A stretch of DNA of 12,406 bases, taken from a virus. Shown here in pieces: positions 1,357-12,340 of the stretch. The notes under the pieces are model-generated. The model saw nothing but the letters and a program-made list of their open reading frames with translations. It made no database searches and was not told where the DNA came from. The first letter of the stretch is position 1, and every line of letters starts with the position of its first letter. A program made the translations under genes and the position numbers. The stretch lies in the UHGV virus genome UHGV-0130052; one strand, written 5' to 3'.

Positions 1357-1375
1357 AGGAGGCATTACGCCTCCT
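1357..1375 (-). terminator. Hairpin over the stop codon of the recombinase gene (possible terminator)
   Basis: AGGAGGC-ATTAC-GCCTCCT 7-bp GC-rich stem; downstream on the minus strand is UUGAUAUUUGA, only moderately U-rich. Confidence 0.25.
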
Positions 1376-1904
1376 CTTCTTCCTTCTTGATACGTTGCAC
1401 CGTTGAAGGAGCAACATTAAAGCTCTCGGCGGTTTTACGCACTGACAGGCCATCAGAAAGGGCTTTCTTTATACCTTCTCGATCCACTGCTTTTCCATTA
1501 CCACGTTTTGTAGGATTGACGGCTTGCGCTTCTCGTTTACGTTCTAACATCAGTTCACGTTCACACGTTGCAACTGCCGACAACATCGTAAGCATCATCT
1601 TTCCCATCGCGCTTGTAATGTCTGCAATGATTCCTTCTTTGTGAAATCGAACAATTACACCTCGATTATTAAGTTGTTCAACTAAAGCAAGGATGTCTAA
1701 GGTGTTACGTCCTAAACGGTCGAGAGAGTGCACGTGTAAGGTGTCGCCTTCTCTCAGATAGGCTAAACACGCTTGTAAGCCTGGGCGGTTAGTGTCTTTA
1801 CCAGACAGCTTATCTTCAAAGACTTTATCGAGAGTTACTCCTGCAAGCTGGCGATCAGTGTTCTGATCTACAGTGCTCACACGCTTATAACCGATATTGC
1901 TCAT
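1365..1904 (-). CDS. Serine recombinase, resolvase/invertase family (179 aa) with C-terminal HTH
   Basis: N-terminal GYKRVSTVDQNTDRQ catalytic-serine motif; SLDRLGRN and SAMGKMMLTMLSAVATCERELMLER segments resemble Tn3 TnpR/Hin as I recall them; C-terminal SVRKTAESFNVAPSTVQRI HTH; AAGAGGA Shine-Dalgarno before the start. Confidence 0.9.
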   Translation of the reverse strand: MSNIGYKRVSTVDQNTDRQLAGVTLDKVFEDKLSGKDTNRPGLQACLAYLREGDTLHVHSLDRLGRNTLDILALVEQLNNRGVIVRFHKEGIIADITSAMGKMMLTMLSAVATCERELMLERKREAQAVNPTKRGNGKAVDREGIKKALSDGLSVRKTAESFNVAPSTVQRIKKEEEEA

Positions 1905-1943
1905 AAAATCCTCTTAATGTGTCGATTTGGCACTACTTCAATG

Positions 1944-1979
1944 CAAATGAGTATACCGTATTCATTTGGTCTGTTTCAA
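1944..1979 (-). promoter_or_regulatory. Putative recombinase promoter (-35 TTGAAA, 18-bp spacer, -10 TATACT on minus strand) overlapping an imperfect dyad CAAATGAGTATAC-C-GTATTCATTTG (res site I candidate)
   Basis: Hexamers read directly on the minus strand at 1974-1979 and 1950-1955; the dyad spans 1944-1968 and overlaps the -10. Classic resolvase autoregulatory layout. Confidence 0.45.
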
Positions 1980-2026
1980 GCCTTATGGGTACGGAATATT
2001 ACACGATTTAGCTGTATTCATTTGGT
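1958..2026. repeat. Direct repeat GTATTCATTTGGT x2 (1958-1970, 2014-2026), candidate accessory resolvase subsites
   Basis: Exact 13-mer repeated 56 bp apart immediately upstream of the recombinase gene. Confidence 0.5.
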
Positions 2027-2047
2027 ATGCCTAATGGATACACAGGG

Positions 2048-2477
2048 GGATAGATTAAATGATGTTCTGTTTATACAGGTTTATTTGTTAGATCAACAAT
2101 TTGGCATTTCTAAACAGATGTTTGAACGTTGCCAAATGTCTTGACAACACAAGAAAAGGGCTTGCTATGCCACGCATTACACGAAATAAGGCTGTAAAAA
2201 CAAAATAAATTTTAAAATTTGCACAAACGAGAAAACTCGTTCAGAAACAAGCAGAACAATTTTTAGCCAACAATTTATGATGGTGCTTTGTAAGCCGCAT
2301 TACACAAGGCTTTGCGAAAGTGATGTAAAAGTGAAGAAAGTGAGAATTGCACTTTTAGCTACTTTTTCATTGAATTTTTAGTATGGAATTACACAGGGAA
2401 TAGAGAGCATTATTCTATGATTTACACAGGGAATATAGGGGGATTATGGCACACACATAGAAAGACATTACACAGAG
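2048..2477. repeat. Iteron-like family: TTACACAGGGAATA (2389-2402 and 2422-2435, exact), ATACACAGGGGGATAG (2048-2063), CGCATTACAC (2173-2182, 2296-2305), CATTACACAG (2466-2475)
   Basis: Exact and near-exact direct repeats seen in sequence; two perfect 14-mers are 33 bp apart. A degenerate copy ATTACATAAGGGAAT sits at ~3432-3446. Confidence 0.6.
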
Positions 2478-2520
2478 TGCTATGTGACAAATGGATGTAA
2501 CGGTAGGTCATAGTGAGCTA

Positions 2521-2609
2521 CCCCCACAGAATTCTGTTAATCTTAACTTTTAAAGAGATTTGTACCCTAACAAAATTCTGTTACCCCACCCCCACAGAAT
2601 TCTGTTACC
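2521..2609. repeat. Three ~20-bp iterons each containing a 12-bp palindrome: CCCCCACAGAATTCTGTTA (2521-2540, 2589-2608) and variant CCCTAACAAAATTCTGTTACCCC (2565-2587)
   Basis: ACAGAATTCTGT is a perfect palindrome; copies are direct repeats flanked by C-runs and are immediately followed by an AT-rich tract. Confidence 0.7.
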
Positions 2610-2670
2610 TATTAGATCATTTATTAAATTACTTATTAAATTATAATATTATATATTTATTTATATGATC
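2610..2670. other. AT-rich tract (almost pure A/T), candidate DNA-unwinding element of an origin
   Basis: TATTAGATCATTTATTAAATTACTTATTAAATTATAATATTATATATTTATTTATATGATC directly downstream of the palindromic iterons. Confidence 0.4.
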
Positions 2671-2840
2671 TTTTGCCTTCCGGCGTTAGCTTCACTCTCT
2701 GGCAAGCAGCCTTACTCCGCTACCTTTCGGGCTACGTTGGCTGGCCCGTTCCGCTCACACCGAAAGCAAAGCGTTACTTTCTTCGTGTAACTATCGTTGG
2801 CGGTAACGCCCACGAAGAAATACTATTGCGCTGTGCGCAG
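2671..2840. other. GC-rich, highly self-complementary island in an otherwise AT-rich non-coding region (candidate structured RNA or cis-acting DNA site; strand unknown)
   Basis: Perfect 10-bp stem TTTCTTCGTG (2778-2787) / CACGAAGAAA (2811-2820) enclosing a GGCG-GTAA-CGCC hairpin (2799-2810); CTTTCGG (2724-2730) / CCGAAAG (2760-2766); TGCGC-TGT-GCGCA hairpin (~2827-2839). The overlapping ORF 2673-2951 looks non-coding. Confidence 0.3.
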
Positions 2841-3476
2841 AAGAGTAATCACCTAACCAATCATACTGATTGCTTATGTGTTAACTCTATCTCTCTACTC
2901 TTAATTACCCTCCTACATTTAATAACTCTGTTATTCTCTGTAGTTGTGTAATTGTTTTCGGTGGAAAAGCCAGAGGCGACACCGAAAGAGAATTCTGATC
3001 TTATTAATCTTATCTATCTTAGTTAATCTTCTTACTTATCTTACTTACTTTATCTACTTTATTATTAATAATAGCTTTATAAGCTCTCTGCGTAGCTCTC
3101 TGACGCAAGAAACAGCATTCAGGAAGGGAATCACCTTAGAAAAGTGTTCTTTGCGTCATAATGTGTTTTATGAAGGATTCAGAGGTGTTTCATAACAGGA
3201 ATGTATAGAGGATACTTTAATTAATTAAAAATAAGGGGTCTAAATGCTTCTCTAACAGCATTAAGCAGGGTAGGGAATGGAAACGCATTGCCTACACATA
3301 TAAGCTCACTACAGGGCTTTACAGGGCGTTTTATAAAGTGACTCTCTATCTTATATCTACCATTACCTTTTCATATACCTAACAAATACAAAATAAGCCC
3401 CTTAAATAAGCCTCTGGCGAGCTAAACAGCCATTACATAAGGGAATGTATTGCTTTTATCAAAATCTCGTTATAAC

Positions 3477-3496
3477 GCGTTTTAGAGCGTTTTAGA
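3477..3496. repeat. Tandem direct repeat GCGTTTTAGA x2, candidate operator ~85 bp upstream of the 3581 promoter
   Basis: Exact 10-bp tandem duplication seen in sequence. Confidence 0.5.
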
Positions 3497-3580
3497 CAAT
3501 AATGAAGAATGGCACTACACAGAAGAGCACGAGTTGCTCGTAAGTGCATGAAAAAGATCGATTTTTTTCGGAAGGGGTAT

Positions 3581-3609
3581 TGACAAACGTCTCTTTCTGT
3601 GCAATAATA
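3581..3609 (+). promoter_or_regulatory. Sigma70-like promoter: -35 TTGACA (3581-3586), 17-bp spacer, -10 AATAAT (3604-3609), for the 3733-5986 operon
   Basis: Consensus -35 with optimal spacer; near-consensus -10; ~120 nt upstream of a gene with a strong AGGAGG ribosome-binding site. Confidence 0.5.
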
Positions 3610-3732
3610 GGAATTAGAGGGGACAGGAATAGATTCTTATCCTCTAAATAATTAAACCAATGCACCGCACTTTGAAGCCCAAGGCTTGCAAGGTGTTTTT
3701 TCTTTTAACCAAATAGAATAGGAGGTTAATTA

Positions 3733-3921
3733 GTGAAGTATTTCACTTCTCAAGATGTAGTTGAAGCCTGGAAACGTGGTGAGATCAACCGCTTTAAAGT
3801 AAGGATGTATAGAAACACCGCTCGCCGTTGTGGTTATCCAGAGCGTGAAAAATGTTTTGACGATGCACTGAAAATTATTGATGAACTGCGTAAAGCTGAG
3901 AAAGAAGCTGAGAAAGAATAA
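3733..3921 (+). CDS. Small hypothetical protein (62 aa), GTG start, charged C-terminal tail
   Basis: AGGAGG 7 nt upstream of GTG; first gene of the rightward operon. No family recognised. Confidence 0.55.
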   Translation: MKYFTSQDVVEAWKRGEINRFKVRMYRNTARRCGYPEREKCFDDALKIIDELRKAEKEAEKE

Positions 3922-3943
3922 TAGACAAGAGAAGGAGAAAACT

Positions 3944-4111
3944 ATGAGCGAAACTAAGAAACCAATTCCGCGCACTTACCTACACGTTGACCCTGAAATC
4001 TTCAAGGTTTTATTTGCTGAAGCCAAGAAAAGGCAAATTATGGTCAGTGATTTGATGTTAGAAATCATTACTGAAGCAGCAGAGAACATCAAACAAAAAA
4101 AGGGTAAGTGA
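3944..4111 (+). CDS. Putative ribbon-helix-helix (CopG/Arc-like) DNA-binding protein (55 aa)
   Basis: AGGAG 6 nt upstream of ATG 3944 (internal start of track ORF 3878-4111); N-terminal basic strand RTYLHV followed by two predicted helices, typical RHH layout. Judged by eye. Confidence 0.5.
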   Translation: MSETKKPIPRTYLHVDPEIFKVLFAEAKKRQIMVSDLMLEIITEAAENIKQKKGK

Positions 4112-4162
4112 TCCTCATTCACTTTAGTAGCGCATTAAGCGTGATTTATAAGGAGATTTTTA

Positions 4163-4816
4163 ATGATTAATGAAGAACAATTTGTAAAAGTTCCTATGTG
4201 GATTCTAAAAATAAGCCAAGTAAACGGGCATAAATTTACAGATAGTGCTAAAAACCTTTACTGCTATCTGAAAGGGTTTGATCGTGCATTTCCCTCTTAC
4301 GCTAAGATAGGCGATGTTTTTGGCATAACACCAAGAGCAGCAGAGGAAAGGGTTAAGAAATTGCTCGAAATGGGATTAATTATAAAAGATGCACGACCAG
4401 GAAGTTCTAATGTCTATCAAGTGGTAGATATTCCACAAGAAGAAGCTAGACAAGAAGCCAAGACACAACAAGAAGCTACTGTTAAAGCTGTTCCTGATCA
4501 GCTTCCGCCTACGGAAGATAATAAACAGCCTTCTTTTGATGTTCTTGATGATTGGGATACGCCTTTACCGTGGGAGACGGAAGAAACACCTGTTTCATCA
4601 AGTGAAAAGGTAGCTAATGATAATGAGGAGGATGTGTTAGAAAATTTTGCCTCTCTTATTATCAAGCAGAAGAATACCAGAACAGCAGGGGCATCATTTA
4701 TAGAATTTGCAAATTCACTAGCTTATAGACACGGGCTAAAACGACCAAATGGTATTGAGGCATATTTTGCTAAGAAACATCCCAAAGTATACGAAGACTT
4801 TGATATTCCATTTTAA
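4163..4816 (+). CDS. Putative replication initiator/replisome-organiser-like protein: N-terminal winged-HTH, acidic C-terminal region (217 aa)
   Basis: AAGGAG Shine-Dalgarno; N-terminal segment (YAKIGDVFGITPRAAEERVKKLLEMGLI) has the look of phage/plasmid initiator wHTH domains; acidic DDWDTPLPWETEETP stretch. Function is inferred, not demonstrated. Confidence 0.45.
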   Translation: MINEEQFVKVPMWILKISQVNGHKFTDSAKNLYCYLKGFDRAFPSYAKIGDVFGITPRAAEERVKKLLEMGLIIKDARPGSSNVYQVVDIPQEEARQEAKTQQEATVKAVPDQLPPTEDNKQPSFDVLDDWDTPLPWETEETPVSSSEKVANDNEEDVLENFASLIIKQKNTRTAGASFIEFANSLAYRHGLKRPNGIEAYFAKKHPKVYEDFDIPF

Positions 4817-4827
4817 TAAGGAGGGTT

Positions 4828-5103
4828 ATGATTCAATATTTAGTAAAAAATCAAGTAGACAGAATTCAGTGTAATGACACAGGAAAACGCATCTACGAAA
4901 CACTTGCTTACCTCTATAAAGGAAAGCCAACACCGCTAAAATATAGCGATGTGTTACACCGAGCAGGGTGCTCTGAAGATGGTTTAAAATTCTGGCTGAA
5001 ACAGCTATCAAACTTCGGTGTTATTGAGATTAAAGAATTATCTTTCTCTACATTCAATCTCAAAAGACTAGATAAAGAAATAGAATTCTATTCCACTCTC
5101 TAA
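4828..5103 (+). CDS. Hypothetical protein, possible small winged-HTH protein (91 aa)
   Basis: Strong AAGGAGGG ribosome-binding site; tightly packed behind the preceding gene; no family recognised. Confidence 0.55.
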   Translation: MIQYLVKNQVDRIQCNDTGKRIYETLAYLYKGKPTPLKYSDVLHRAGCSEDGLKFWLKQLSNFGVIEIKELSFSTFNLKRLDKEIEFYSTL

Positions 5104-5235
5104 AATCTCTCTATGTAATTAAAATATAAAAGGAAAACATTATTATGATAGTAGCTATGTATTGGTTATTGTTCTTTATCACGTTAGAAACATATTTCGG
5201 GGTGTTTTCCTTTAAAAGAAAAGGAAAAGTAAATA

Positions 5236-5646
5236 ATGGCAAAAAGAAAAAACAATGTTGTTAAGAAAATCGGGGATTCAGCTTCTCTTCTAAGTAAACC
5301 TAAATCTATTCTAAGACGCAAAGACTTTAAAGAGCTAGTTACGCTCACCAAGCATAATAGCGCCCCTGGCGAATGGAAAACAGAGATCATAGAACATTCT
5401 CCCTCTGTGCCTTGTGGAGATGAATTTAACGCATTACAAGAAATCTTATCTTCAACACCTGGCGTATTCTGGAAACCTAGAAAAAGAAAAGAGTATATTG
5501 TTGATAGCTCTGATTTACGCAAATACCAGATTTTAGGATTTGAAGACTATAACCACTACGTTGGTTATCTCGCCACCAATGGCCTAAATAATTTAGTTCC
5601 TGAATTCCAAATTTTAGATAATGCTGATCACTATGGAGACTTTTAA
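5236..5646 (+). CDS. Hypothetical protein with basic N-terminus (136 aa)
   Basis: Same strand and operon; AAGGA upstream; the antisense ORF 5184-5522 is rejected in its favour. Confidence 0.5.
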   Translation: MAKRKNNVVKKIGDSASLLSKPKSILRRKDFKELVTLTKHNSAPGEWKTEIIEHSPSVPCGDEFNALQEILSSTPGVFWKPRKRKEYIVDSSDLRKYQILGFEDYNHYVGYLATNGLNNLVPEFQILDNADHYGDF

Positions 5647-5647
5647 T

Positions 5648-5986
5648 ATGAACAAAAACACGTATGATACAATTTACTCACTAATTAATTATTATGAGGA
5701 TGATTACCTCCTGCCTTTAAACCGCGCTGAACTTGATGCATATAAAGAAAACACCCCAGCGGCACTAAATGAGGCGTTTAAACACTGGGATTTAGCTGTG
5801 AATGCCTTTGAGCACCTCTGTAAGCGTGTAGAGATGCTCTGTAAGCGTGAAAACGCATATCTGACAGCCGATCAGATATGGGAGCTATCAAACTGGATAG
5901 AAGATATTGAATCTGATGTTCGCTATGTAGGAGACGGCCTTGTTGAACTAGCTCAACGCTTAGGCGCTACTATCACAGAAGAATAA
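5648..5986 (+). CDS. Hypothetical protein (112 aa from ATG 5648; track ORF begins at 5621)
   Basis: ATG 5648 lies 1 nt after the upstream stop with GGAGAC 7 nt ahead; the 5621 start would overlap the previous gene by 26 nt. Confidence 0.5.
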   Translation: MNKNTYDTIYSLINYYEDDYLLPLNRAELDAYKENTPAALNEAFKHWDLAVNAFEHLCKRVEMLCKRENAYLTADQIWELSNWIEDIESDVRYVGDGLVELAQRLGATITEE

Positions 5987-6015
5987 AAAAAGCAACAAAA
6001 AAGTTGTAAAATATC

Positions 6016-6044
6016 TTGACATTTCATCTATTGTATGTTAATAT
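6016..6044 (+). promoter_or_regulatory. Sigma70-like promoter: -35 TTGACA (6016-6021), 17-bp spacer, -10 TAATAT (6039-6044), upstream of the capsid-containing operon
   Basis: Consensus -35, optimal spacer, near-consensus -10; a second -10-like hexamer (AATTAT/TATATA) follows immediately. Confidence 0.55.
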
Positions 6045-6181
6045 AATTATATAGGGTGATTATTTTTCCTTTATTGGTTCGATATTAAAAATTCTTCTTG
6101 TCGTTAAAGGGGAGTAAAATCTCCGCTCCCCGCTTCTCCTCCTTAAGTAAATACTGTGTCATTATTACCTCTTTTTTCCTT

Positions 6182-6214
6182 TGTTATGCATACATCTTGG
6201 AGTGTGCATAACAT
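6182..6214. promoter_or_regulatory. Inverted repeat TGTTATGCA-N14-TGCATAACA in the operon leader (candidate protein-binding site or RNA hairpin)
   Basis: 9-bp perfect arms seen in sequence. Confidence 0.4.
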
Positions 6215-6227
6215 AGGGTAATTACAA

Positions 6228-6257
6228 AGGCGGCTTTAAATGCTGCCTTTTATTTTG
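6228..6257 (+). terminator. Intrinsic terminator inside the leader, ~60 nt upstream of the first gene of the capsid operon
   Basis: AGGCGGC-TTTAAAT-GCTGCCT stem (7 bp, one G-U) followed by TTTATTTTG. Confidence 0.5.
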
Positions 6258-6264
6258 CCCGTTA

Positions 6265-6282
6265 TACAACTTAAAAGTTGTA
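6265..6282. promoter_or_regulatory. Perfect 18-bp palindrome TACAACTTAAAAGTTGTA between the leader terminator and the first operon gene
   Basis: Exact dyad symmetry seen in sequence, ~37 bp upstream of ATG 6319. Confidence 0.4.
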
Positions 6283-6318
6283 TTTCTTACTTTAAACAAG
6301 GTAACAAGGTTTATATAA

Positions 6319-6531
6319 ATGTTGTTTTTAAACGATAAAGAGCAAATCATCAAGTATAAAGATGAAATGCTGAAAATTAATCCACAAATTACCGAAATGG
6401 TAGCTAAATACGCTGGGTGTTCTGTAGAGGAAGTAGAAAGATGTGTTGAAAAATATTTTTCTCCTTCTTCTCCGTCTACACCTTCCCTTAATGAACTAAT
6501 CAAATTAAAAGCTAAGGAGATTACTAAATGA
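6319..6531 (+). CDS. Small hypothetical protein (70 aa)
   Basis: Stop overlaps the next start (ATGA), suggesting translational coupling; weak ribosome-binding site. Confidence 0.4.
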   Translation: MLFLNDKEQIIKYKDEMLKINPQITEMVAKYAGCSVEEVERCVEKYFSPSSPSTPSLNELIKLKAKEITK

Positions 6532-6890
6532 TTATTGATTTAGACACTCTTTTTCCAAGTCGAAAGACGTTTACAGATCTGGTGGCTTATTGTACTGATC
6601 CGTTTGCCTCTGTAGAAAACAAGGTTTTTGCTTCTCTTCCTGCTGATGTTGAATGCGGAGACTTGATCACCAGCACTGGCGCTAAATATGAATCAGGAGA
6701 TGATATCTATGTTGTTATGAGTGAATTTGTAACGGCTGGGGAAAACAAGCCTGTAGATGTGCTACGTAGCAATGCTGGCCTTGTGTGCATTAAAGCTGAT
6801 GCGCTGAATGCTGTAAGTGAAGCAGCAAAAACAGCATTAATTAAAAAAGGCTTCCAGCTTGAAGGCTTTAATACGGTTTTCACTTCTTAA
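6528..6890 (+). CDS. Hypothetical head-module protein (120 aa), positionally analogous to a decoration or scaffold protein
   Basis: AAGGAG Shine-Dalgarno; ATGA overlap with upstream gene; sits directly upstream of the capsid-like gene. I see no convincing similarity to lambda gpD, so the role is positional inference only. Confidence 0.5.
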   Translation: MIIDLDTLFPSRKTFTDLVAYCTDPFASVENKVFASLPADVECGDLITSTGAKYESGDDIYVVMSEFVTAGENKPVDVLRSNAGLVCIKADALNAVSEAAKTALIKKGFQLEGFNTVFTS

Positions 6891-6908
6891 TAAAAGGAAT
6901 AATAATAA

Positions 6909-7937
6909 ATGATTCTAGGTAATGATTACGTTGATTTGATCCCTCTGTTCCAGACACACAGCACGCGTAACTTCCTGCTCTCTACCCTTGATTTTACGGA
7001 TTCTGTAGGGGTTACATCTCATAAAGTAGCTGTTTCACAGCTTGTCGAAAGCAACGAATCTCTGTTCAACAAAGAAACCTCTCGTTTCTCTTCTGAACAC
7101 AACGTTACTAAGCGAGAACAAGGTAAAGAATGGCTGATTGAAATCCCTTACTTCCTACGTGAAGATGTGATCCGTCCTTCTGATGTTCAAGGCAAGCGTA
7201 AACCTGGCACTGATTTCCAGGAAACACTCACTGATATTTATGCTGAGTATGTTGCTAAACATCACGTAGCGTATCAGCGTACAAAAGAGAGCGTGTTGGC
7301 GGCTTCTTTGTTCTCTGGCAAAACTTACACGCCTAAAACTGATGATGTTCTTATCGAGTGGGGCAAGCTGTTTAACGTATCAGCTATGAAAGCCACTGTG
7401 AACGCTTCCAGCACTGACACCACGAAGATTTTTAAAGAATTTGATCAGATTGCTACTGACATTATCGAAAAAGCACAAAGCCAGGCGGCTGCTGTAGAGC
7501 GTATTGTTGTTTTCTGTAAGCCGGAAGCCTTCTCTGCAATTCGATTCTCTGCGGGTATGGCAAACGCATTCCAGTATGTAAGCCCACTGGAAGAAGGGAA
7601 CGTTGTGTATCAGCGTCGTGACCTGCTACCAGGAGTGACAGCGTTCACTATTCCAGGAACTAACATTGATGTTGTTAAACTGGTAGATCCGCTACACCTG
7701 GCACATATGACCGCAGACGCTGTAGCTGTGCCTAAATTCTCTAAGGGTAGCGGAATTTATACCAATATCTTCGGGGCTGCTTCCAGCACCTTTGAACTGA
7801 TTAATGCCGCTCCTGCTGAGGTGTATAGCTATAGCTATGAATCTTCTCGTGGTGATGCTGTTAACGTTGTTACAGAGAATAGCCAGATGGTTGTAAACCA
7901 CGGTGTAGGCTTCTCCGTTCAAATCACTGTTAAATAA
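6909..7937 (+). CDS. Putative major capsid protein, lambda gpE-like family (342 aa)
   Basis: Length close to lambda gpE (341 aa). Local similarities to gpE as I recall it: RIVVFCKPEAFSAIRFS vs IIVFDPKGWALFRSF, LFSGKTYTPKTDD vs VLKGKYTMTGE, C-terminal FSVQI vs VSVQLA, N-terminal DLIPLFQ vs FDPLFLR. Followed by a strong terminator. Not verified by search. Confidence 0.55.
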   Translation: MILGNDYVDLIPLFQTHSTRNFLLSTLDFTDSVGVTSHKVAVSQLVESNESLFNKETSRFSSEHNVTKREQGKEWLIEIPYFLREDVIRPSDVQGKRKPGTDFQETLTDIYAEYVAKHHVAYQRTKESVLAASLFSGKTYTPKTDDVLIEWGKLFNVSAMKATVNASSTDTTKIFKEFDQIATDIIEKAQSQAAAVERIVVFCKPEAFSAIRFSAGMANAFQYVSPLEEGNVVYQRRDLLPGVTAFTIPGTNIDVVKLVDPLHLAHMTADAVAVPKFSKGSGIYTNIFGAASSTFELINAAPAEVYSYSYESSRGDAVNVVTENSQMVVNHGVGFSVQITVK

Positions 7938-7955
7938 TATTTTAACGTGTAATAG

Positions 7956-7990
7956 AGGCGTGGCGTGAATAACACGCTTCGCCTTTTTTT
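7956..7990 (+). terminator. Strong intrinsic terminator after the capsid-like gene
   Basis: AGGCG/CGCCT outer and GCGTG/CACGC inner stem (loop AATAA) followed by seven Ts, then ATTTATTTTT. Confidence 0.75.
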
Positions 7991-8023
7991 ATTTATTTTT
8001 AAATTTTGAGAGGTGATTAAAAT

Positions 8024-8224
8024 ATGGAAGTGATTCTGAAATCAAAAAACGGTGTACACGTACATTTAGATGCTAATGATTCTAGAGGCTTGTTAAATCT
8101 GAAATATCTATGTTCTCTCTTAGATGTTCCATATGAAGGAGTAAAAGCCCGTATGTTCAGACTAAACGAGAGTATTGATCAGGCTCTACACCATTTCTTA
8201 AGCAAAGAAGGTGGTAAAAAATGA
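8024..8224 (+). CDS. Small hypothetical protein (66 aa)
   Basis: GAGGTGA upstream of ATG; same operon and strand. Confidence 0.45.
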   Translation: MEVILKSKNGVHVHLDANDSRGLLNLKYLCSLLDVPYEGVKARMFRLNESIDQALHHFLSKEGGKK

Positions 8225-8242
8225 TTAATAAGGGGATTTTAA

Positions 8243-10084
8243 ATGTTAGAAATTAACACTTCTAAAATTAAGAACACAGTAACATTTAGTGTAGATAAAG
8301 ACAGCTTGAAAAAAGCGAAAGACTCTATTACAGGCTTAAAGGAATTCGCAGAAAATATCAAGCCAGCTAAATTGAGATTTGATAATGTCACTAAAGGCTA
8401 TAAGAAAGCACAAAGTGAAGTAGACAAGATTACTCAACAGAAAGCTAAAACAGAAAAACAGAATCAAAGAGCACAAGCTGCCGCAGCAAGAGCACAGGCA
8501 AGGCAACAGGCACAAATAGCAGCACGTAAAGAGAAAGCAGAATTAAAACTTCTCGATGTGTCAAGCTCTATCAGTGCAATGCACCGCCTCTCTGTAGCGG
8601 AACAATACAAAGCTATTGCACAGGCTAGAGAGATAGCAAAACAATATGAGCAAGGGGCTATCTCGCTTGCACGTATGAATAGCCAGATGAAACGCCTACA
8701 ACAACAACAACGTAAGATTAATGGCAACAGAAAAACTCAATTAGCCCCCGTTAAGGGAGGATCAGGGAATTCCGCCACTATGGGCGCTCTGTTATTTGGA
8801 GGCGCTACGGCTGCTGCTGGCGTGATGGCTGTTAGCAAAGCGGCGGAGTTTGTTAGTAGCAGTTTCGCTAACGCAGAGACCCAAGGGGAGCTAATCCAAC
8901 GTGCCAAGCTGGGCGGTGTAGACGTTAACCAGATGTATAATATTACAGAATGGGCCTATAGACACGGGATCGATAGCCTCCAGGGAGATCAAGGGGCTAG
9001 GAAATACCTGGATCAGATGAAAGATGTTAGGGAACGTGCCGCAAAATCCTACAGTGAAGCTGAATTGGTGAAAGACAAGAAAACCGGAAAATCTGAATGG
9101 AAAGGCGGTGATAACGCTATTAATGAACTTCTAAACATCGGTGTTATTAACAAAAGCGACCTTAAAAAATTTGCTGATAATCCAGCCGGATTAATTTCTA
9201 AGGCTGTTAATGGAATGATGAAAAAAGGGTTTTCAGACTCCCAAATTGGACAACGTTTAGAAGACCTGGGCGATGATTTGATGCTTACATCAAAATATTG
9301 GCAACGTTCCGTTAAAGATGTACAAGAAAGTATTAATCAGCAAAAAGCCTCTGGAAAATGGCTAACAGAAACACAGCAAGAATCTATTGTTAAATTCAGA
9401 GAACTAAACAGACAGCTTTCACAGCTTTCTGATGCAAGACAAGTAGCATTTGTAGACGGCTTTATGAAATCTCTCGATCCAAAAGTAACGGAAGAGTTTA
9501 TGAAAAACCTTTCTAATCTCACTCCGTATTTTACGAAGCTGGGTGAAGCCGCAGGAAGTCTTTTTGACGCCATTATGAAGATTGTAAACTGGTTTAATCG
9601 TAATGATGATAAGACAGATGCTATTCAGAAAAATATGGGTGATGCACCGCCACTATCTAACGATGGAATGAAACAGAATCTTTCTAACCTCGTTCCTGAT
9701 AAATATAAAGGCGCTGGCACTGCAACAACTACACCTGATAATAGTCATTCCCTCTTTAACACAATTAAGGGATTGCTTTTCGATGATAAGTCTTCTGTGT
9801 CAGATGTAAAAATGTCAGTCAGCGAAGCACCGATAACCAATCTCAAACAGGGTGCTTTAAATAATCTTGCAATGACAACTCCGGCTTATAATTTATCTCC
9901 TGTGTTTAATCTGAATCCTACATTTGAAGTGGTAACAGAGGTTCCGCTTACTATTAATTCTGACACATCCAGATTAAGCGATTATGTGGATTTTACAGCG
10001 AGAGCAAGTCGGGATAGCTTCTTGAAATCATTAACATTAACCAGCTTGTCAGGACAATCCAACGGCGGGGAATTCCCGCCATAA
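8243..10084 (+). CDS. Large hypothetical protein (613 aa): N-terminal coiled-coil-like region rich in Q/A/K/R, Gly/Ala-rich hydrophobic segment, large C-terminal domain; tape-measure-like or scaffold-like
   Basis: AAGGGGA 6 nt upstream of ATG; residues ~60-170 are helical and low complexity (QRAQAAAARAQARQQAQIAARKEKAELKLL); hydrophobic TMGALLFGGATAAAGVMAV; no catalytic motif recognised. Confidence 0.6.
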   Translation: MLEINTSKIKNTVTFSVDKDSLKKAKDSITGLKEFAENIKPAKLRFDNVTKGYKKAQSEVDKITQQKAKTEKQNQRAQAAAARAQARQQAQIAARKEKAELKLLDVSSSISAMHRLSVAEQYKAIAQAREIAKQYEQGAISLARMNSQMKRLQQQQRKINGNRKTQLAPVKGGSGNSATMGALLFGGATAAAGVMAVSKAAEFVSSSFANAETQGELIQRAKLGGVDVNQMYNITEWAYRHGIDSLQGDQGARKYLDQMKDVRERAAKSYSEAELVKDKKTGKSEWKGGDNAINELLNIGVINKSDLKKFADNPAGLISKAVNGMMKKGFSDSQIGQRLEDLGDDLMLTSKYWQRSVKDVQESINQQKASGKWLTETQQESIVKFRELNRQLSQLSDARQVAFVDGFMKSLDPKVTEEFMKNLSNLTPYFTKLGEAAGSLFDAIMKIVNWFNRNDDKTDAIQKNMGDAPPLSNDGMKQNLSNLVPDKYKGAGTATTTPDNSHSLFNTIKGLLFDDKSSVSDVKMSVSEAPITNLKQGALNNLAMTTPAYNLSPVFNLNPTFEVVTEVPLTINSDTSRLSDYVDFTARASRDSFLKSLTLTSLSGQSNGGEFPP

Positions 10085-10105
10085 CATTACAAGGAAATTA
10101 TTATT

Positions 10106-10819
10106 ATGGCGACCGCCGGGATTTTAACCATACGATCAGCAAACTCCCCAGAACAACACGTTCAGGCTGTTTACAAAGCAGAACAAGATATAAACTCTAC
10201 AAAAAACACAAATAACTCTGCCTCTACTGTGAAAGGAGAGAATGGATTTGCTATTGTTACCAGTGGCTTGGCATCTTCTGGTAATGACGTTTATGAAAAT
10301 TATATGGCACTGGCCTTTGACAGTGTTGACGATGTGAACGTGAGACGTTCGGCAGATGTCACAAGCTACCCCGTAGAGAATGGTGCTACTGTGTCTGATC
10401 ACGTTCAAATTAAAAACAATAAGTTTTCTCTTAAAGGGCGTATCTCTGAAACACCGATTAAAAGCGATCCTGGCTTGTTAAAGAGTGCAGGGGTGAACGG
10501 GAACAGAAGATCATTAGCTATCGACTACCTGAATCAGATTATGGACAGTAGACAGCCTTTTCTTCTTGTTACAGAAAATAAAACTTTTGAGAACGTTGTT
10601 TTAACAGGCATCGAATACACAGAAGAGGCAAGCGAATCCCTGGTATTTGATCTTAGCTTTGAACAAATCAGATTAGTTTCTTATGGCACTGTAAACACTG
10701 TAGCTATCAAAACACAGCCATCTAAGAACATAGGGGCTAATATGAAAAAACGTGTTAACACTGAAAAAGCAAGTAGTGAAGGTGAAGACACTATTACTCC
10801 TGCCTTTAAACAGGAATAG
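10106..10819 (+). CDS. Hypothetical protein (237 aa), composition suggests beta-rich; possible virion or accessory protein
   Basis: AAGGA upstream of ATG; last gene of the operon, convergent with the integrase; no motif recognised. Confidence 0.55.
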   Translation: MATAGILTIRSANSPEQHVQAVYKAEQDINSTKNTNNSASTVKGENGFAIVTSGLASSGNDVYENYMALAFDSVDDVNVRRSADVTSYPVENGATVSDHVQIKNNKFSLKGRISETPIKSDPGLLKSAGVNGNRRSLAIDYLNQIMDSRQPFLLVTENKTFENVVLTGIEYTEEASESLVFDLSFEQIRLVSYGTVNTVAIKTQPSKNIGANMKKRVNTEKASSEGEDTITPAFKQE

Positions 10820-10860
10820 CCGTAAATGCCTCTAAAACGCTCTGTAACGATGTAATTATA

Positions 10861-10893
10861 AAAGAGGCTACCAATCTATGTTGAAGCCTCTTT
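10861..10893. terminator. Candidate bidirectional terminator between the convergent 10106-10819 gene and the integrase
   Basis: Perfect 9-bp stem AAAGAGGCT / AGCCTCTTT with A-run on one side and T-run on the other; the 15-nt loop is long, which lowers confidence. Confidence 0.45.
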
Positions 10894-10900
10894 ATTGCGT

Positions 10901-12265
10901 CTATGGTGTTGTTTTACGCCTTAAATTTGATTTTTTATTGATTGATAAGCCTTTCTCTATTTCAGGGTAGCGTAGAAGCTCAATATATTTTTTAAGCTCT
11001 ACTGGAGAAGCTGCATTCTTGCTATATGTGCGGAATGTCTCTGTATTGCCGCGTGTATGGCCCAGGAGAAGGGCGATCCTGTCTTCTGGAATTTGATTTC
11101 GATCAAGAAGCTGTGCTACTCCGTGTCTCAGAGAATGAAACACCTTCCTTTCTGTTCCCTTTTCCCCTAAAGCCTTTCGTTTAGCTCTTGTAAATCTCTG
11201 CGTGTGCCACGTAGAGCGTTTACCATCTACACGCTCTGTAATGCTGGCGTGATAGAACAAAAAGCCATTATGAGGCTTTTCACGCAGCGACAACACCAAC
11301 GGAGTGATAAGGCTGTGTACAGGCACAACACGTGCCGCAGCTTTCGTTTTTCCCTGTGTGATTTCAAAACACAGCACACCTTCGATCTCTTTCACATCGT
11401 CTATTGTGAGACTTGCTATCTCATTGATCCGCATACCTGTATATAAACCGATAAGACACAAAGCCATCATTTCTTTGTTTTCTGCTGAATTACCGGAAAA
11501 TACTTGCAACACCTGCAATAGCTCTTTGTTAGAAAATGCCTCGTAGCTCTCTCTACTTTGTGCCACATCAAGCCTATGCCCTCGCCAGGGGGAGAGCGCC
11601 CTTTCTGGCGCATCGTGGTAACGTGATGAAGCTAACTCCCATAGCTGGGCCATTGGGCTGATATAATTTGCAATTGATTGTTGTGAAAGGGTTTTTTGCA
11701 TGTGTTCAATCCAGCCTGTAACAGTGGTGCGGCTTACATCTTGCAATGCAATATCAGGCTTTTTACGGTAGGAGAGAAACATCTCTACCGCTTTTCTTGC
11801 CTTAGCTAAAGTGGCTGGCTTCTTCTTCGTGCTGTTAATTGTCAGGTAGATTTCAAGAATTTTAAGCAATGACGGACACGAAGACGCTGTATCTTGCATT
11901 CTGGTAGCTGTTTTGGCGTATTTAGCCTTACTGCGTAACAGCTCCAGCGTGTTCTCTATTGTGCTGTTTACAGGGGCGACACTCTCCCGTAGACAATGGT
12001 ATTCATCTGCAATCTGATCACGCTTTCTACGTGCAACACGAAGATTACTTGTGTGCAGACTCCTGACAAACGTCCTTTTTCCTTCAAAAAAGGGCTGCAT
12101 ATACACAGGCAACGTGATCCTCAAATAGTAGTTACCGTAAGAATCACAGATTATGTATTGATTGGGCTTGTATCTCATAAACTCCCCGGCTAAAGTGTCG
12201 GAGCGTTTGTAATGTGAAAATTGATTGTGACGCATAGAAAATGATGATTTTTCTATAAGATTCAA
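10901..12265 (-). CDS. int: Tyrosine site-specific integrase (454 aa)
   Basis: C-terminal catalytic-domain motifs HSLRHGVAQLL and LLGHTRGNTETFRTY (His/Arg/Tyr signature); start lies ~55 bp from the right-hand att repeat and the gene reads away from it. The ribosome-binding site is weak, so the exact start is uncertain. Confidence 0.9.
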   Translation of the reverse strand: MNLIEKSSFSMRHNQFSHYKRSDTLAGEFMRYKPNQYIICDSYGNYYLRITLPVYMQPFFEGKRTFVRSLHTSNLRVARRKRDQIADEYHCLRESVAPVNSTIENTLELLRSKAKYAKTATRMQDTASSCPSLLKILEIYLTINSTKKKPATLAKARKAVEMFLSYRKKPDIALQDVSRTTVTGWIEHMQKTLSQQSIANYISPMAQLWELASSRYHDAPERALSPWRGHRLDVAQSRESYEAFSNKELLQVLQVFSGNSAENKEMMALCLIGLYTGMRINEIASLTIDDVKEIEGVLCFEITQGKTKAAARVVPVHSLITPLVLSLREKPHNGFLFYHASITERVDGKRSTWHTQRFTRAKRKALGEKGTERKVFHSLRHGVAQLLDRNQIPEDRIALLLGHTRGNTETFRTYSKNAASPVELKKYIELLRYPEIEKGLSINKKSNLRRKTTP

Positions 12266-12320: not shown

Positions 12321-12340
12321 ACTCCTATTATCGGCACCAT
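12321..12340. repeat. attR core: second copy of the 20-bp direct repeat (duplicated tRNA 3' end)
   Basis: ACTCCTATTATCGGCACCAT identical to 36-55; not preceded by the rest of a tRNA, so it is a partial tRNA copy marking the element boundary. Confidence 0.8.

Follow-up and report, generated by a model that had tools for sequence, protein, structure and literature searches.

The described systems closest to the locus considered here, the 332-bp non-coding gap located between position 5986 and the ATG at 6319 of the virus genome UHGV-0130052 (12,406 nucleotides, the whole of which is called the window below), are the lambdoid late unit pR'-qut-tR' with its antiterminator Q, satellite P4, the cis-acting antiterminator RNAs HK022 put and EAR, and the isrK locus of Gifsy-1. 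In the lambdoid unit, a strong constitutive promoter gives rise to a terminated RNA of about 200 nt (194 nt in the case of the lambda 6S RNA), the head genes have no promoter of their own, and further terminators occur in the late region. Satellite P4 has a constitutive promoter followed by an untranslated leader, and it is silenced by the premature termination of the transcript in this leader (CI RNA, PLE transcript). In HK022 put and EAR, a structured RNA lying between the promoter and the terminators could modify its own polymerase. In the Gifsy-1 prophage, the isrK promoter yields a short terminated RNA, with some read-through downstream, and the short form is a functional small RNA, whose target in trans is the longer transcript resulting from this read-through (PMC4825925).

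The gap shares with these systems a layout which an earlier note, made on the sequence alone, had pointed out: a promoter, a structured untranslated leader, and a terminator located directly before the capsid/tail operon. This layout was found to be conserved in the relatives of the island carrying it. The differences are nevertheless substantial. Contrary to the lambdoid unit, the island in the window has no Q homolog, the product of the gene at the position of Q is unrelated, small, and acidic-rich, the early operon appears to be gated likewise, and the likely helpers are virulent myophages and not lambdoid phages. No P4 genes and no seqA/B/C-type repeats were found here, and the terminator is of the canonical intrinsic type. 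There is no sequence or Rfam similarity to put or EAR, and the leaders of the present family are lineage-variable and 205–800 nt long. Lastly, IsrK is encoded downstream of the Q-like antQ and controls an anti-repressor (PMC4825925), whereas the window lacks a Q-like gene, the genes located past its terminator are structural, and no trans pairing was detected.

We put at about one in two the probability that the 332-bp gap acts, where the early genes give way to the late ones, as a termination gate, the passage of which would require regulated read-through. In the uninfected cell, the near-consensus host-type promoter (sigma70, extended -10) would fire, and a stable, folded, untranslated RNA of about 205 nt would be made from it; this RNA would end at the strong intrinsic terminator, where transcripts arriving from the early operon would be stopped too. 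The capsid and tail genes would thus be expressed only when RNA polymerase reads through the terminator. The switch would be thrown by processive antitermination, most likely upon infection by a helper phage; alternatively, the leader RNA itself might be the cis-acting loading site of an antitermination activity. Read-through might be signaled by a protein of the helper, by some property of the leader RNA, or by a protein attached to two dyads, O1 and O2, described below.

Predicted promoter, leader RNA, and terminator

The near-consensus promoter announced in the earlier note is present on the + strand at 6016–6044. This sigma70-type element is composed of the -35 hexamer TTGACA (6016–6021), a 17-nt spacer ending in the TG of an extended -10 (6036–6037), and the -10 hexamer TAATAT (6039–6044), and is preceded by an A-rich region. 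It scores 10/12 plus TG in the motif scan, in which four sites on the + strand of the window reach at least 10/12 by one count, and only those at 3580 and 6016 by another. Promoter-like sites are not commoner overall than in shuffled sequences (21 vs. 31.5), and the motif alone therefore proves little. Transcription is predicted to start in the region TATAGGGT (6050–6057, + strand), 7 nt past the -10 element, and the leader RNA probably begins with (A)GGGU, at about 6051–6054, since a (T)A(T)AGGG(T) motif occurs 7–10 nt past the -10 element in nearly all the relatives and at the early promoters. Tandem -10-like hexamers, TATAAT (6042–6047) and TATATA (6048–6053), are also present, as previously suggested; they were found to overlap the predicted start, however, and do not lie inside the initial transcribed region. 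The hexamer GATTAT at +8 to +13 of this region is a weak candidate for a pause hexamer, and no clear sigma-dependent pause element was detected downstream of +1 in the 6016 unit. The start-site sequence ATAGGGTGATTA (6046–6062) recurs as ATAGGGTAATTA (6208–6224) just before the terminator, and alleles with a 17-nt insertion carry a third copy of ATAGGTA.

The predicted leader RNA (6051–6257, + strand), which would be the terminated product of about 205 nt, is predicted to fold stably, in line with what had been supposed about the structure of this region: its minimum free energy (MFE) is -56.8 kcal/mol, with z = -5.4 in comparison with 200 shuffled sequences, and the opposite strand gives z = -3.2. 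No conserved open reading frame (ORF) was found in the leader on either strand. A 25-aa ORF on the minus strand (ATG at 6157 to about 6080, preceded by a good Shine-Dalgarno sequence, AAGAGG) was rejected as a gene because it is frameshifted or truncated in the alleles of ECONIH1 and 2014C-3061.

Hairpin 1, GGGGAGU...GCUCCCC, occurs at 6109–6131 of the + strand (arms 6109–6114 and 6126–6131), exactly where it had been reported, and was obtained in both the MFE and the centroid folds; its stem is invariant in 15 distinct Escherichia coli alleles, one of which shows a 1-nt deletion in the loop. It is followed by a CU-rich tract, GCUUCUCCUCCUUA (6132–6145, + strand), which is complementary to a Shine-Dalgarno sequence and unpaired in the folds, and the length of which varies between alleles by indels of 3–9 nt. 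The 9-bp dyad described at 6182–6214 exists and turns out to be part of a larger structure: hairpin 2 (+ strand) has a stem of 16 paired positions with one mismatch, formed by 6178–6193 with 6202–6217, and an 8-nt loop, AUCUUGGA. All three stems, including that of the terminator, stay paired in the 15 E. coli alleles, the indels and nearly all the substitutions being located in linkers and loops. The sole stem substitution among these alleles, G6204A in hairpin 2, changes a U-G into a U-A pair and thus keeps the pairing on the + strand only.

The terminator, which the earlier note rightly recognized near 6228–6257, extends on the + strand from 6226 to 6257, with a stem at 6226–6250 and the U-tract UUUUAUUUU at 6248–6256. 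The core stem, in which GGCGGC (6229–6234) pairs with GCUGCC (6242–6247), can be extended to 9 bp including five GC pairs, with a 7-nt loop, and this intrinsic terminator ranks first in the scan of the window. It is separated by 62 nt from the first gene of the capsid module. This spacer contains tandem copies of AACAAGGT (two copies, 6295–6310, + strand) holding the Shine-Dalgarno sequence AAGG (6306–6309), which precedes the ATG at 6319, and its AGGUA sequence is able to pair with UUACCU (6165–6170) in the leader. No sigma70-like site scoring at least 9/12 was found on the + strand between 6257 and 6318, and read-through is therefore the simplest route to the expression of the operon. The T4-type late promoter motif TATAAATA was also considered and discarded, as it is not enriched (28 matches in the scan vs. 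25.2 expected). The sequence TATAAATG at 6314–6321 overlaps the start codon of the first late gene; an rV5-like late-promoter motif has been reported (PMC3606486).

Sequence variation within the species shows that the gap is under purifying selection. Among seven E. coli alleles, 14 of the 319 sites of the gap are variable (4.4%; 4.6% in the leader), as compared with 10/71 to 24/111 (14–22%) of the third codon positions in the flanking genes of the same alleles; the variability of the gap is thus 3–5 times lower than that of the neighboring third codon positions.

The layout in related islands and elsewhere in the window

Syntenic loci were identified in Escherichia, Buttiauxella, Kluyvera, Scandinavium, Citrobacter, Klebsiella, Sodalis, Serratia, Dryocola, Enterobacter, and Cronobacter, and the features of the layout were counted in 16 gaps of relatives from about ten enterobacterial genera. 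In all the relatives, a non-coding gap of 330–990 nt precedes the homolog of the 70-aa ORF, that of the window being among the shortest, and the synteny of the gated genes (6319–7937 in the window) is kept. A promoter of the form TTGACA-17-(TG)-TAnnnT occurs 13–93 nt into the gap in 14 of the 16 cases, and an intrinsic terminator is present before the start codon in 14/16, at a distance of 42–82 nt in 13 of these gaps, L020 having 136 nt. These terminators have unrelated stem sequences, with GC stems, several UUCG loops, and 5–8 U, and the same promoter-terminator pattern was observed in further IMG/VR loci. The leader bodies cannot be aligned between subgroups. The layout is therefore conserved across the family, whereas the sequence is not.

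A leader of about 560 nt is common to seven relatives, and its consensus fold includes 98 pairs in 15 predicted helices. Compensatory double changes were observed at 31 of the 98 pairs (vs. 21.3 ± 2.5), 92.7% of the cells are paired (83.7% in shuffles and 42–53% with slid partners), and the covariation score amounts to 0.378 vs. 0.233, all these values being obtained with a structure derived from the same seven related sequences as those on which it was scored. Long leaders occur in L004 (5770–6335), L006 (5783–6345), L007, L009, L022, L024, L025, and L045–L055; no match to them was found in Rfam or among phages, and the leader of about 560 nt is a candidate for a new large structured RNA. The 205-nt leader of the window could not be regarded as its homolog, since nothing aligns between the two beyond the promoter and the start.

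These data also bear on another possibility, namely that the gap harbors a self-contained small-RNA gene, the product of which would act in trans on mRNAs of the helper or of the island, for example via its CU-rich tract, while the terminator would merely end this gene and the early operon. The capsid operon would then be transcribed from a helper-dependent promoter in the spacer, or else the short RNA would act on read-through transcripts in an IsrK-like manner. A strong promoter and a strong terminator of its own, a stable fold, and purifying selection are what would be expected of such a gene; the leaders evolve fast between lineages, as an arms-race RNA would be expected to do, and CCUCC motifs recur in those of the relatives, where they sit in a hairpin loop in most of the long-type leaders. 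The pairing of UUACCU with AGGUA in the spacer would also fit. The earlier proposal that the terminated RNA might function independently as a small RNA has an experimental precedent in the Gifsy-1 IsrK locus (PMC4825925). On the other hand, the leader is no more complementary to the rest of the island than shuffled controls are (the best duplex with the + strand transcripts of 3601–10900 reaches -40.0 kcal/mol, whereas the shuffled mean is -39.1, with a standard deviation of 2.5), and the comparison of the gap, of both the window type and the long type, with 50,697 phage records yielded no meaningful DNA similarity. The spacer contains no promoter motif, the T4-type late motif is not enriched, and the fixed distance of 42–82 nt from the terminator to the start codon suggests a tie to the downstream gene. 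We therefore consider a self-contained small-RNA gene to be a possible, though rather unlikely, explanation.

A counterpart of the gate was found at the head of the early operon, where, on the + strand, the promoter TTGACA-17-TGcAATAAT (3580–3608) is followed by a 5' hairpin (3614–3647), a 13-bp terminator hairpin (3667–3695) with the tract U6CU4 (3696–3706), and the Shine-Dalgarno sequence AGGAGG preceding a GTG at 3733. This promoter-hairpin-terminator unit (3580–3706) is kept, with compensated stems, in L001, L002, L003, L004, L008, L009, and L016. A third strong intrinsic terminator is located at 7954–7994 (+ strand), after the capsid gene and before the tape-measure-like and Dit-like genes, and nearly all the relatives examined have a large hairpin with a U-tract at the corresponding place, the U-run being weak in L019. 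With two promoters, at 3580 and 6016, three terminators thus stand between promoters and the genes they would serve, and the occurrence of the same design at the early operon, together with the third terminator, suggests that the island may be kept silent by serial premature termination. The post-capsid terminator was noted in the window and in L004, L006, L007, L016, L021, L024, L026, and L027; in many of the relatives, the conserved motif A(A/G)GC(G/A)AAAT occupies its apical loop while the stems co-vary, and it may be a protein-binding hairpin.

Two further explanations were weighed in the light of the early unit. The gap might be a passive insulator, the terminator of which simply ends the early operon with a fixed low read-through, while the internal promoter tops up late transcription. 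This would be consistent with the fact that no terminator belonging to the early operon precedes the 6016 promoter, that no antiterminator emerged from the scans of the island proteins, and that a terminator placed behind a capsid gene commonly serves to tune the ratios of proteins; if this were all, the finding would be an ordinary one. A passive insulator would not need 200–990 nt of conserved structured RNA, however, and neither the canonical, strong character of the terminators, with the GC stems, UUCG loops, and 5–8 U mentioned above, nor the presence of the same gate before the early operon is in its favor, and it seems unlikely. The second explanation is an immunity of the P4 type, in which a fragment of the leader would be processed to a small RNA, pair with the nascent leader, and cause termination. 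Its logic matches that of satellite P4, and a gate is present on both operons; but no repeated complementary boxes were found above chance between the leader and the other transcripts of the island, nor were any P4-like genes or Rfam matches, and we regard this mechanism as highly improbable.

Possible read-through factors and flanking dyads

The earlier note had likened the locus to the lambdoid late-promoter/terminator layout; no link with the lambdoid Q system was found here. The gene at the position of Q in lambda, directly upstream of the gap (5621–5986, + strand), belongs to a conserved family of its own (about 100–127 aa) in which no known domain was detected; its product is acidic-rich and helical-looking from its sequence, and its true start is probably M10, as annotated in RefSeq. 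A Q-like role was considered for this gene and rejected on the grounds of its acidic-rich sequence without any known domain. No match to boxA (UGCUCUUUAACAA-like) with up to three mismatches was found on the + strand between 5987 and 6318, matches with two mismatches being present only in some of the long-type relatives, and a rut-like C-rich composition was discarded, the C/G ratio being only 0.9–1.3. The covariance models of Rfam 15, applied at a permissive threshold (E ≤ 1), gave no match in the gap of the window or in those of four relatives.

Several points weigh against the idea of a regulated gate. No Q-, N-, or Psu-like protein and no other antiterminator family or domain was found in the Pfam, PHROGs, and NCBIfam scans of all the island proteins, and we know of no antiterminator in the phages of the phi92/phAPEC8 type, which are the probable helpers. 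The leaders are so divergent that they show no evident shared RNA recognition element beyond the start motif (A)GGG, and the evidence for covariation comes from leaders of relatives that cannot be aligned with that of the window. Terminators behind capsid genes are a common sight in phages and may do no more than fix the ratios of proteins. In L020, a sigma70-like site (GTCACA-16-TATAAT) is present after the terminator, and a helper-specific promoter in the 62-nt spacer of the window is conceivable. Lastly, the activity of the promoter and that of the terminator are predictions from the sequence, as are the regulation of read-through and its triggering by a helper.

On a bolder reading, the leaders might be undescribed long cis-acting RNAs which would sense infection by virulent phi92/phAPEC8-type myophages through a phage protein or a change in the polymerase, and would make the polymerase resistant to terminators, so that the early, capsid, and tail genes would be unlocked in series, and the terminated RNA would in addition serve as an anti-Shine-Dalgarno small RNA; taken as a whole, this scenario is an unlikely one.

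The unit is bordered by two dyads. The upstream one, O1 (CAAC-AAAAAA-GTTG, 5993–6006), is located about 10 bp upstream of the -35 hexamer, with its center about 51 bp upstream of the predicted start. The downstream one, O2 (ATACAACTT-AA-AAGTTGTAT, 6264–6283), lies 16 nt past the U-tract. It had been described as a perfect 18-bp palindrome: the two 9-nt arms (6264–6272 and 6275–6283) are indeed perfect in the window, but they are separated by AA, and the palindrome is imperfect in most of the alleles. Since an outer arm position is G instead of A in most of the E. coli alleles, only the core CAAC-N6-GTTG (6267–6280) is conserved. No exact CAAC-N6-GTTG site other than O1 and O2 occurs in the 12.4 kb of the window, where we estimate that about 0.19 would be expected by chance; the two dyads form a 16-nt repeat with 88% identity and are 274 bp apart. 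Dyads with altered half-sites were found at the position of O1 in L004, L006, and L025, and dyads occur at the position of O2 in most of the relatives (TAAC-N6-GTTA in L004, L009, L024, and L025, TCACATTTTAAAATGTGA in L019, and GTTAC-N9-GTAAC in L022). The half-sites change together, as in the case of TAAC-N6-GTTA, which is present at both sites in L004. Because O1 is outside the leader transcript, a protein-binding role is likelier than that of an RNA hairpin, and the two dyads probably bind a dimeric protein which modulates the unit.

One candidate binder, a 91-aa ArsR/SmtB-like winged-helix protein (PDB profile, E = 7e-4), was judged unlikely because L016 and L017 have the same leader and different versions of this gene. 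Iterons of the replication initiator (Rep) are disfavored as well, since the window and L001 have the same O1 and O2 although their Rep proteins share only 57% identity. In the Escherichia coli strain MLI104K2 (L013, 1–600), an IS3-family element takes the place of O1 and the promoter, and the leader remains from GGGTGATT; this is a natural knockout allele of the predicted promoter.

The dyads raise the question as to whether the gap serves primarily as a DNA site, either for packaging (pac/cos) or as an origin of replication, with proteins binding at O1 and O2 and transcription serving to activate the site. Two specific dyads at this distance from each other, an AT-rich composition (30% GC in the gap), and a position directly upstream of the head genes, where cos is found in lambda, would be compatible with such a site, and an island lacking terminase must present one to the packaging machinery of its helper. 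However, none of the phages in the collection resembles the gap at the DNA level, the two islands compared above have the same O1 and O2 despite the divergence of their Rep proteins, and candidate iterons are found inside the rep gene instead. The conserved terminators with their compensated stems and the RNA covariation would also be left unexplained, and a DNA site is in our opinion very unlikely to be the main function of the gap.

The island and its probable helpers

The window corresponds to one integrated island of E. coli, with 12.3 kb between direct repeats of 20 nt (ACTCCTATTATCGGCACCAT, 36–55 and 12321–12340), inserted at a tRNA-Thr gene, the cut 3' part of which (1–51) was seen via Rfam; apart from this 3' end, the scan for tRNA and transfer-messenger RNA genes detected none inside the window. 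In the carrier strain O26:H11 11368 (NC_013361.1), proA adjoins the island site, and the predicted leader RNA would correspond to about 327579–327802. Of 5426 complete E. coli genomes, 229 contain the island over at least 80% of its length and 307 contain the gap, so that the satellite family occurs in about 4–6% of these genomes.

The first late gene is a 70-aa ORF (6319–6531, + strand), the N-terminus of which aligns from residue 1 in the relatives and which gave only spurious matches to designed repeats in a profile search against the PDB. It is followed on the + strand by a 120-aa ORF (6528–6890), by the gene encoding the major capsid protein (6909–7937; Phage_cap_E, E = 9e-14), and then by rightward genes encoding a 66-aa product, a 613-aa tape-measure-like protein (phrog_16051, E = 8e-52), and a Dit-like protein (E = 2.5e-29). 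Upstream of the gap, the rightward genes include the small ORFs of the early operon (3733–4111), an O-like replication initiator, Rep (4163–4816), and three small ORFs, the last of which ends at 5986. A tyrosine integrase is encoded on the minus strand (10901–12265). The only recognizable island proteins are the integrase, the O-like Rep, the major capsid protein, and the tape-measure-like and Dit-like proteins; neither a terminase nor a portal or a protease was detected.

Patches of the island are 90–99% identical to virulent myophages of the phi92/phAPEC8 type: 3932–4516 matches gp095/gp094 of phage muut with 98.7% identity, and 10137–10265 matches a tail gene of the phi92/phAPEC8-type myophages with about 90% identity. 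These near-identical patches point to a recent exchange with probable helpers, and the helpers are likely to be virulent myophages of this type. The capsid protein is only about 25% identical to phage capsids, the matches listed being Pseudomonas myophages of 90–99 kb, and it also matches 41 E. coli phage records; its relatives are confined to Enterobacterales. Because of its gene content, the patches shared with myophages, and the distant capsid protein, the island looks like a phage satellite of an undescribed family.

The marker genes of known satellites include psu, delta, sid, and alpha in P4, those encoding the portal, protease, terminase, and connectors in cfPICI, and alpA and pri-rep in PICI. 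None of the markers of the known families (P4-like, PICI/cfPICI, PLE, and PICMI) was found here. A search of the literature brought to light no description of the island family or of a relation with a helper, which does not prove that none exists. The silencing and the timing of structural genes in satellites of virulent phages are known for very few systems, and the present family, which carries its own capsid, tape-measure-like, and Dit-like genes, has hosts in Klebsiella, Enterobacter, Citrobacter, Cronobacter, and Serratia too. Phages of the phi92/phAPEC8 type, the partners of the DNA exchange, are used in phage therapy collections, and a gate made of host-type promoters and terminators could lead to an antitermination factor, or to a class of regulatory RNAs, not known so far.

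A few other features of these islands are worth mentioning. In the linker-coding part of rep, the 15-nt sequence CACAA(G/C)AAGAAGCTA is repeated 30 bp apart (4434–4478), and these repeats are candidate origin iterons, as in lambda O. In the Klebsiella islands L016 and L017 (1293–1756), which are otherwise 98.5% identical, the C-terminal part of Rep and the gene of the 91-aa ArsR-like type have been exchanged together, as a single module. Besides its tyrosine integrase, the window encodes a serine recombinase (resolvase/invertase-like, 179 aa; 1365–1904, minus strand). It is followed by a region of about 1.6 kb (about 1917–3580), amounting to 3 kb in O26:H11 (L001, 2700–5706), which contains no convincing ORF and no RefSeq gene and is nevertheless 80–94% conserved between islands.

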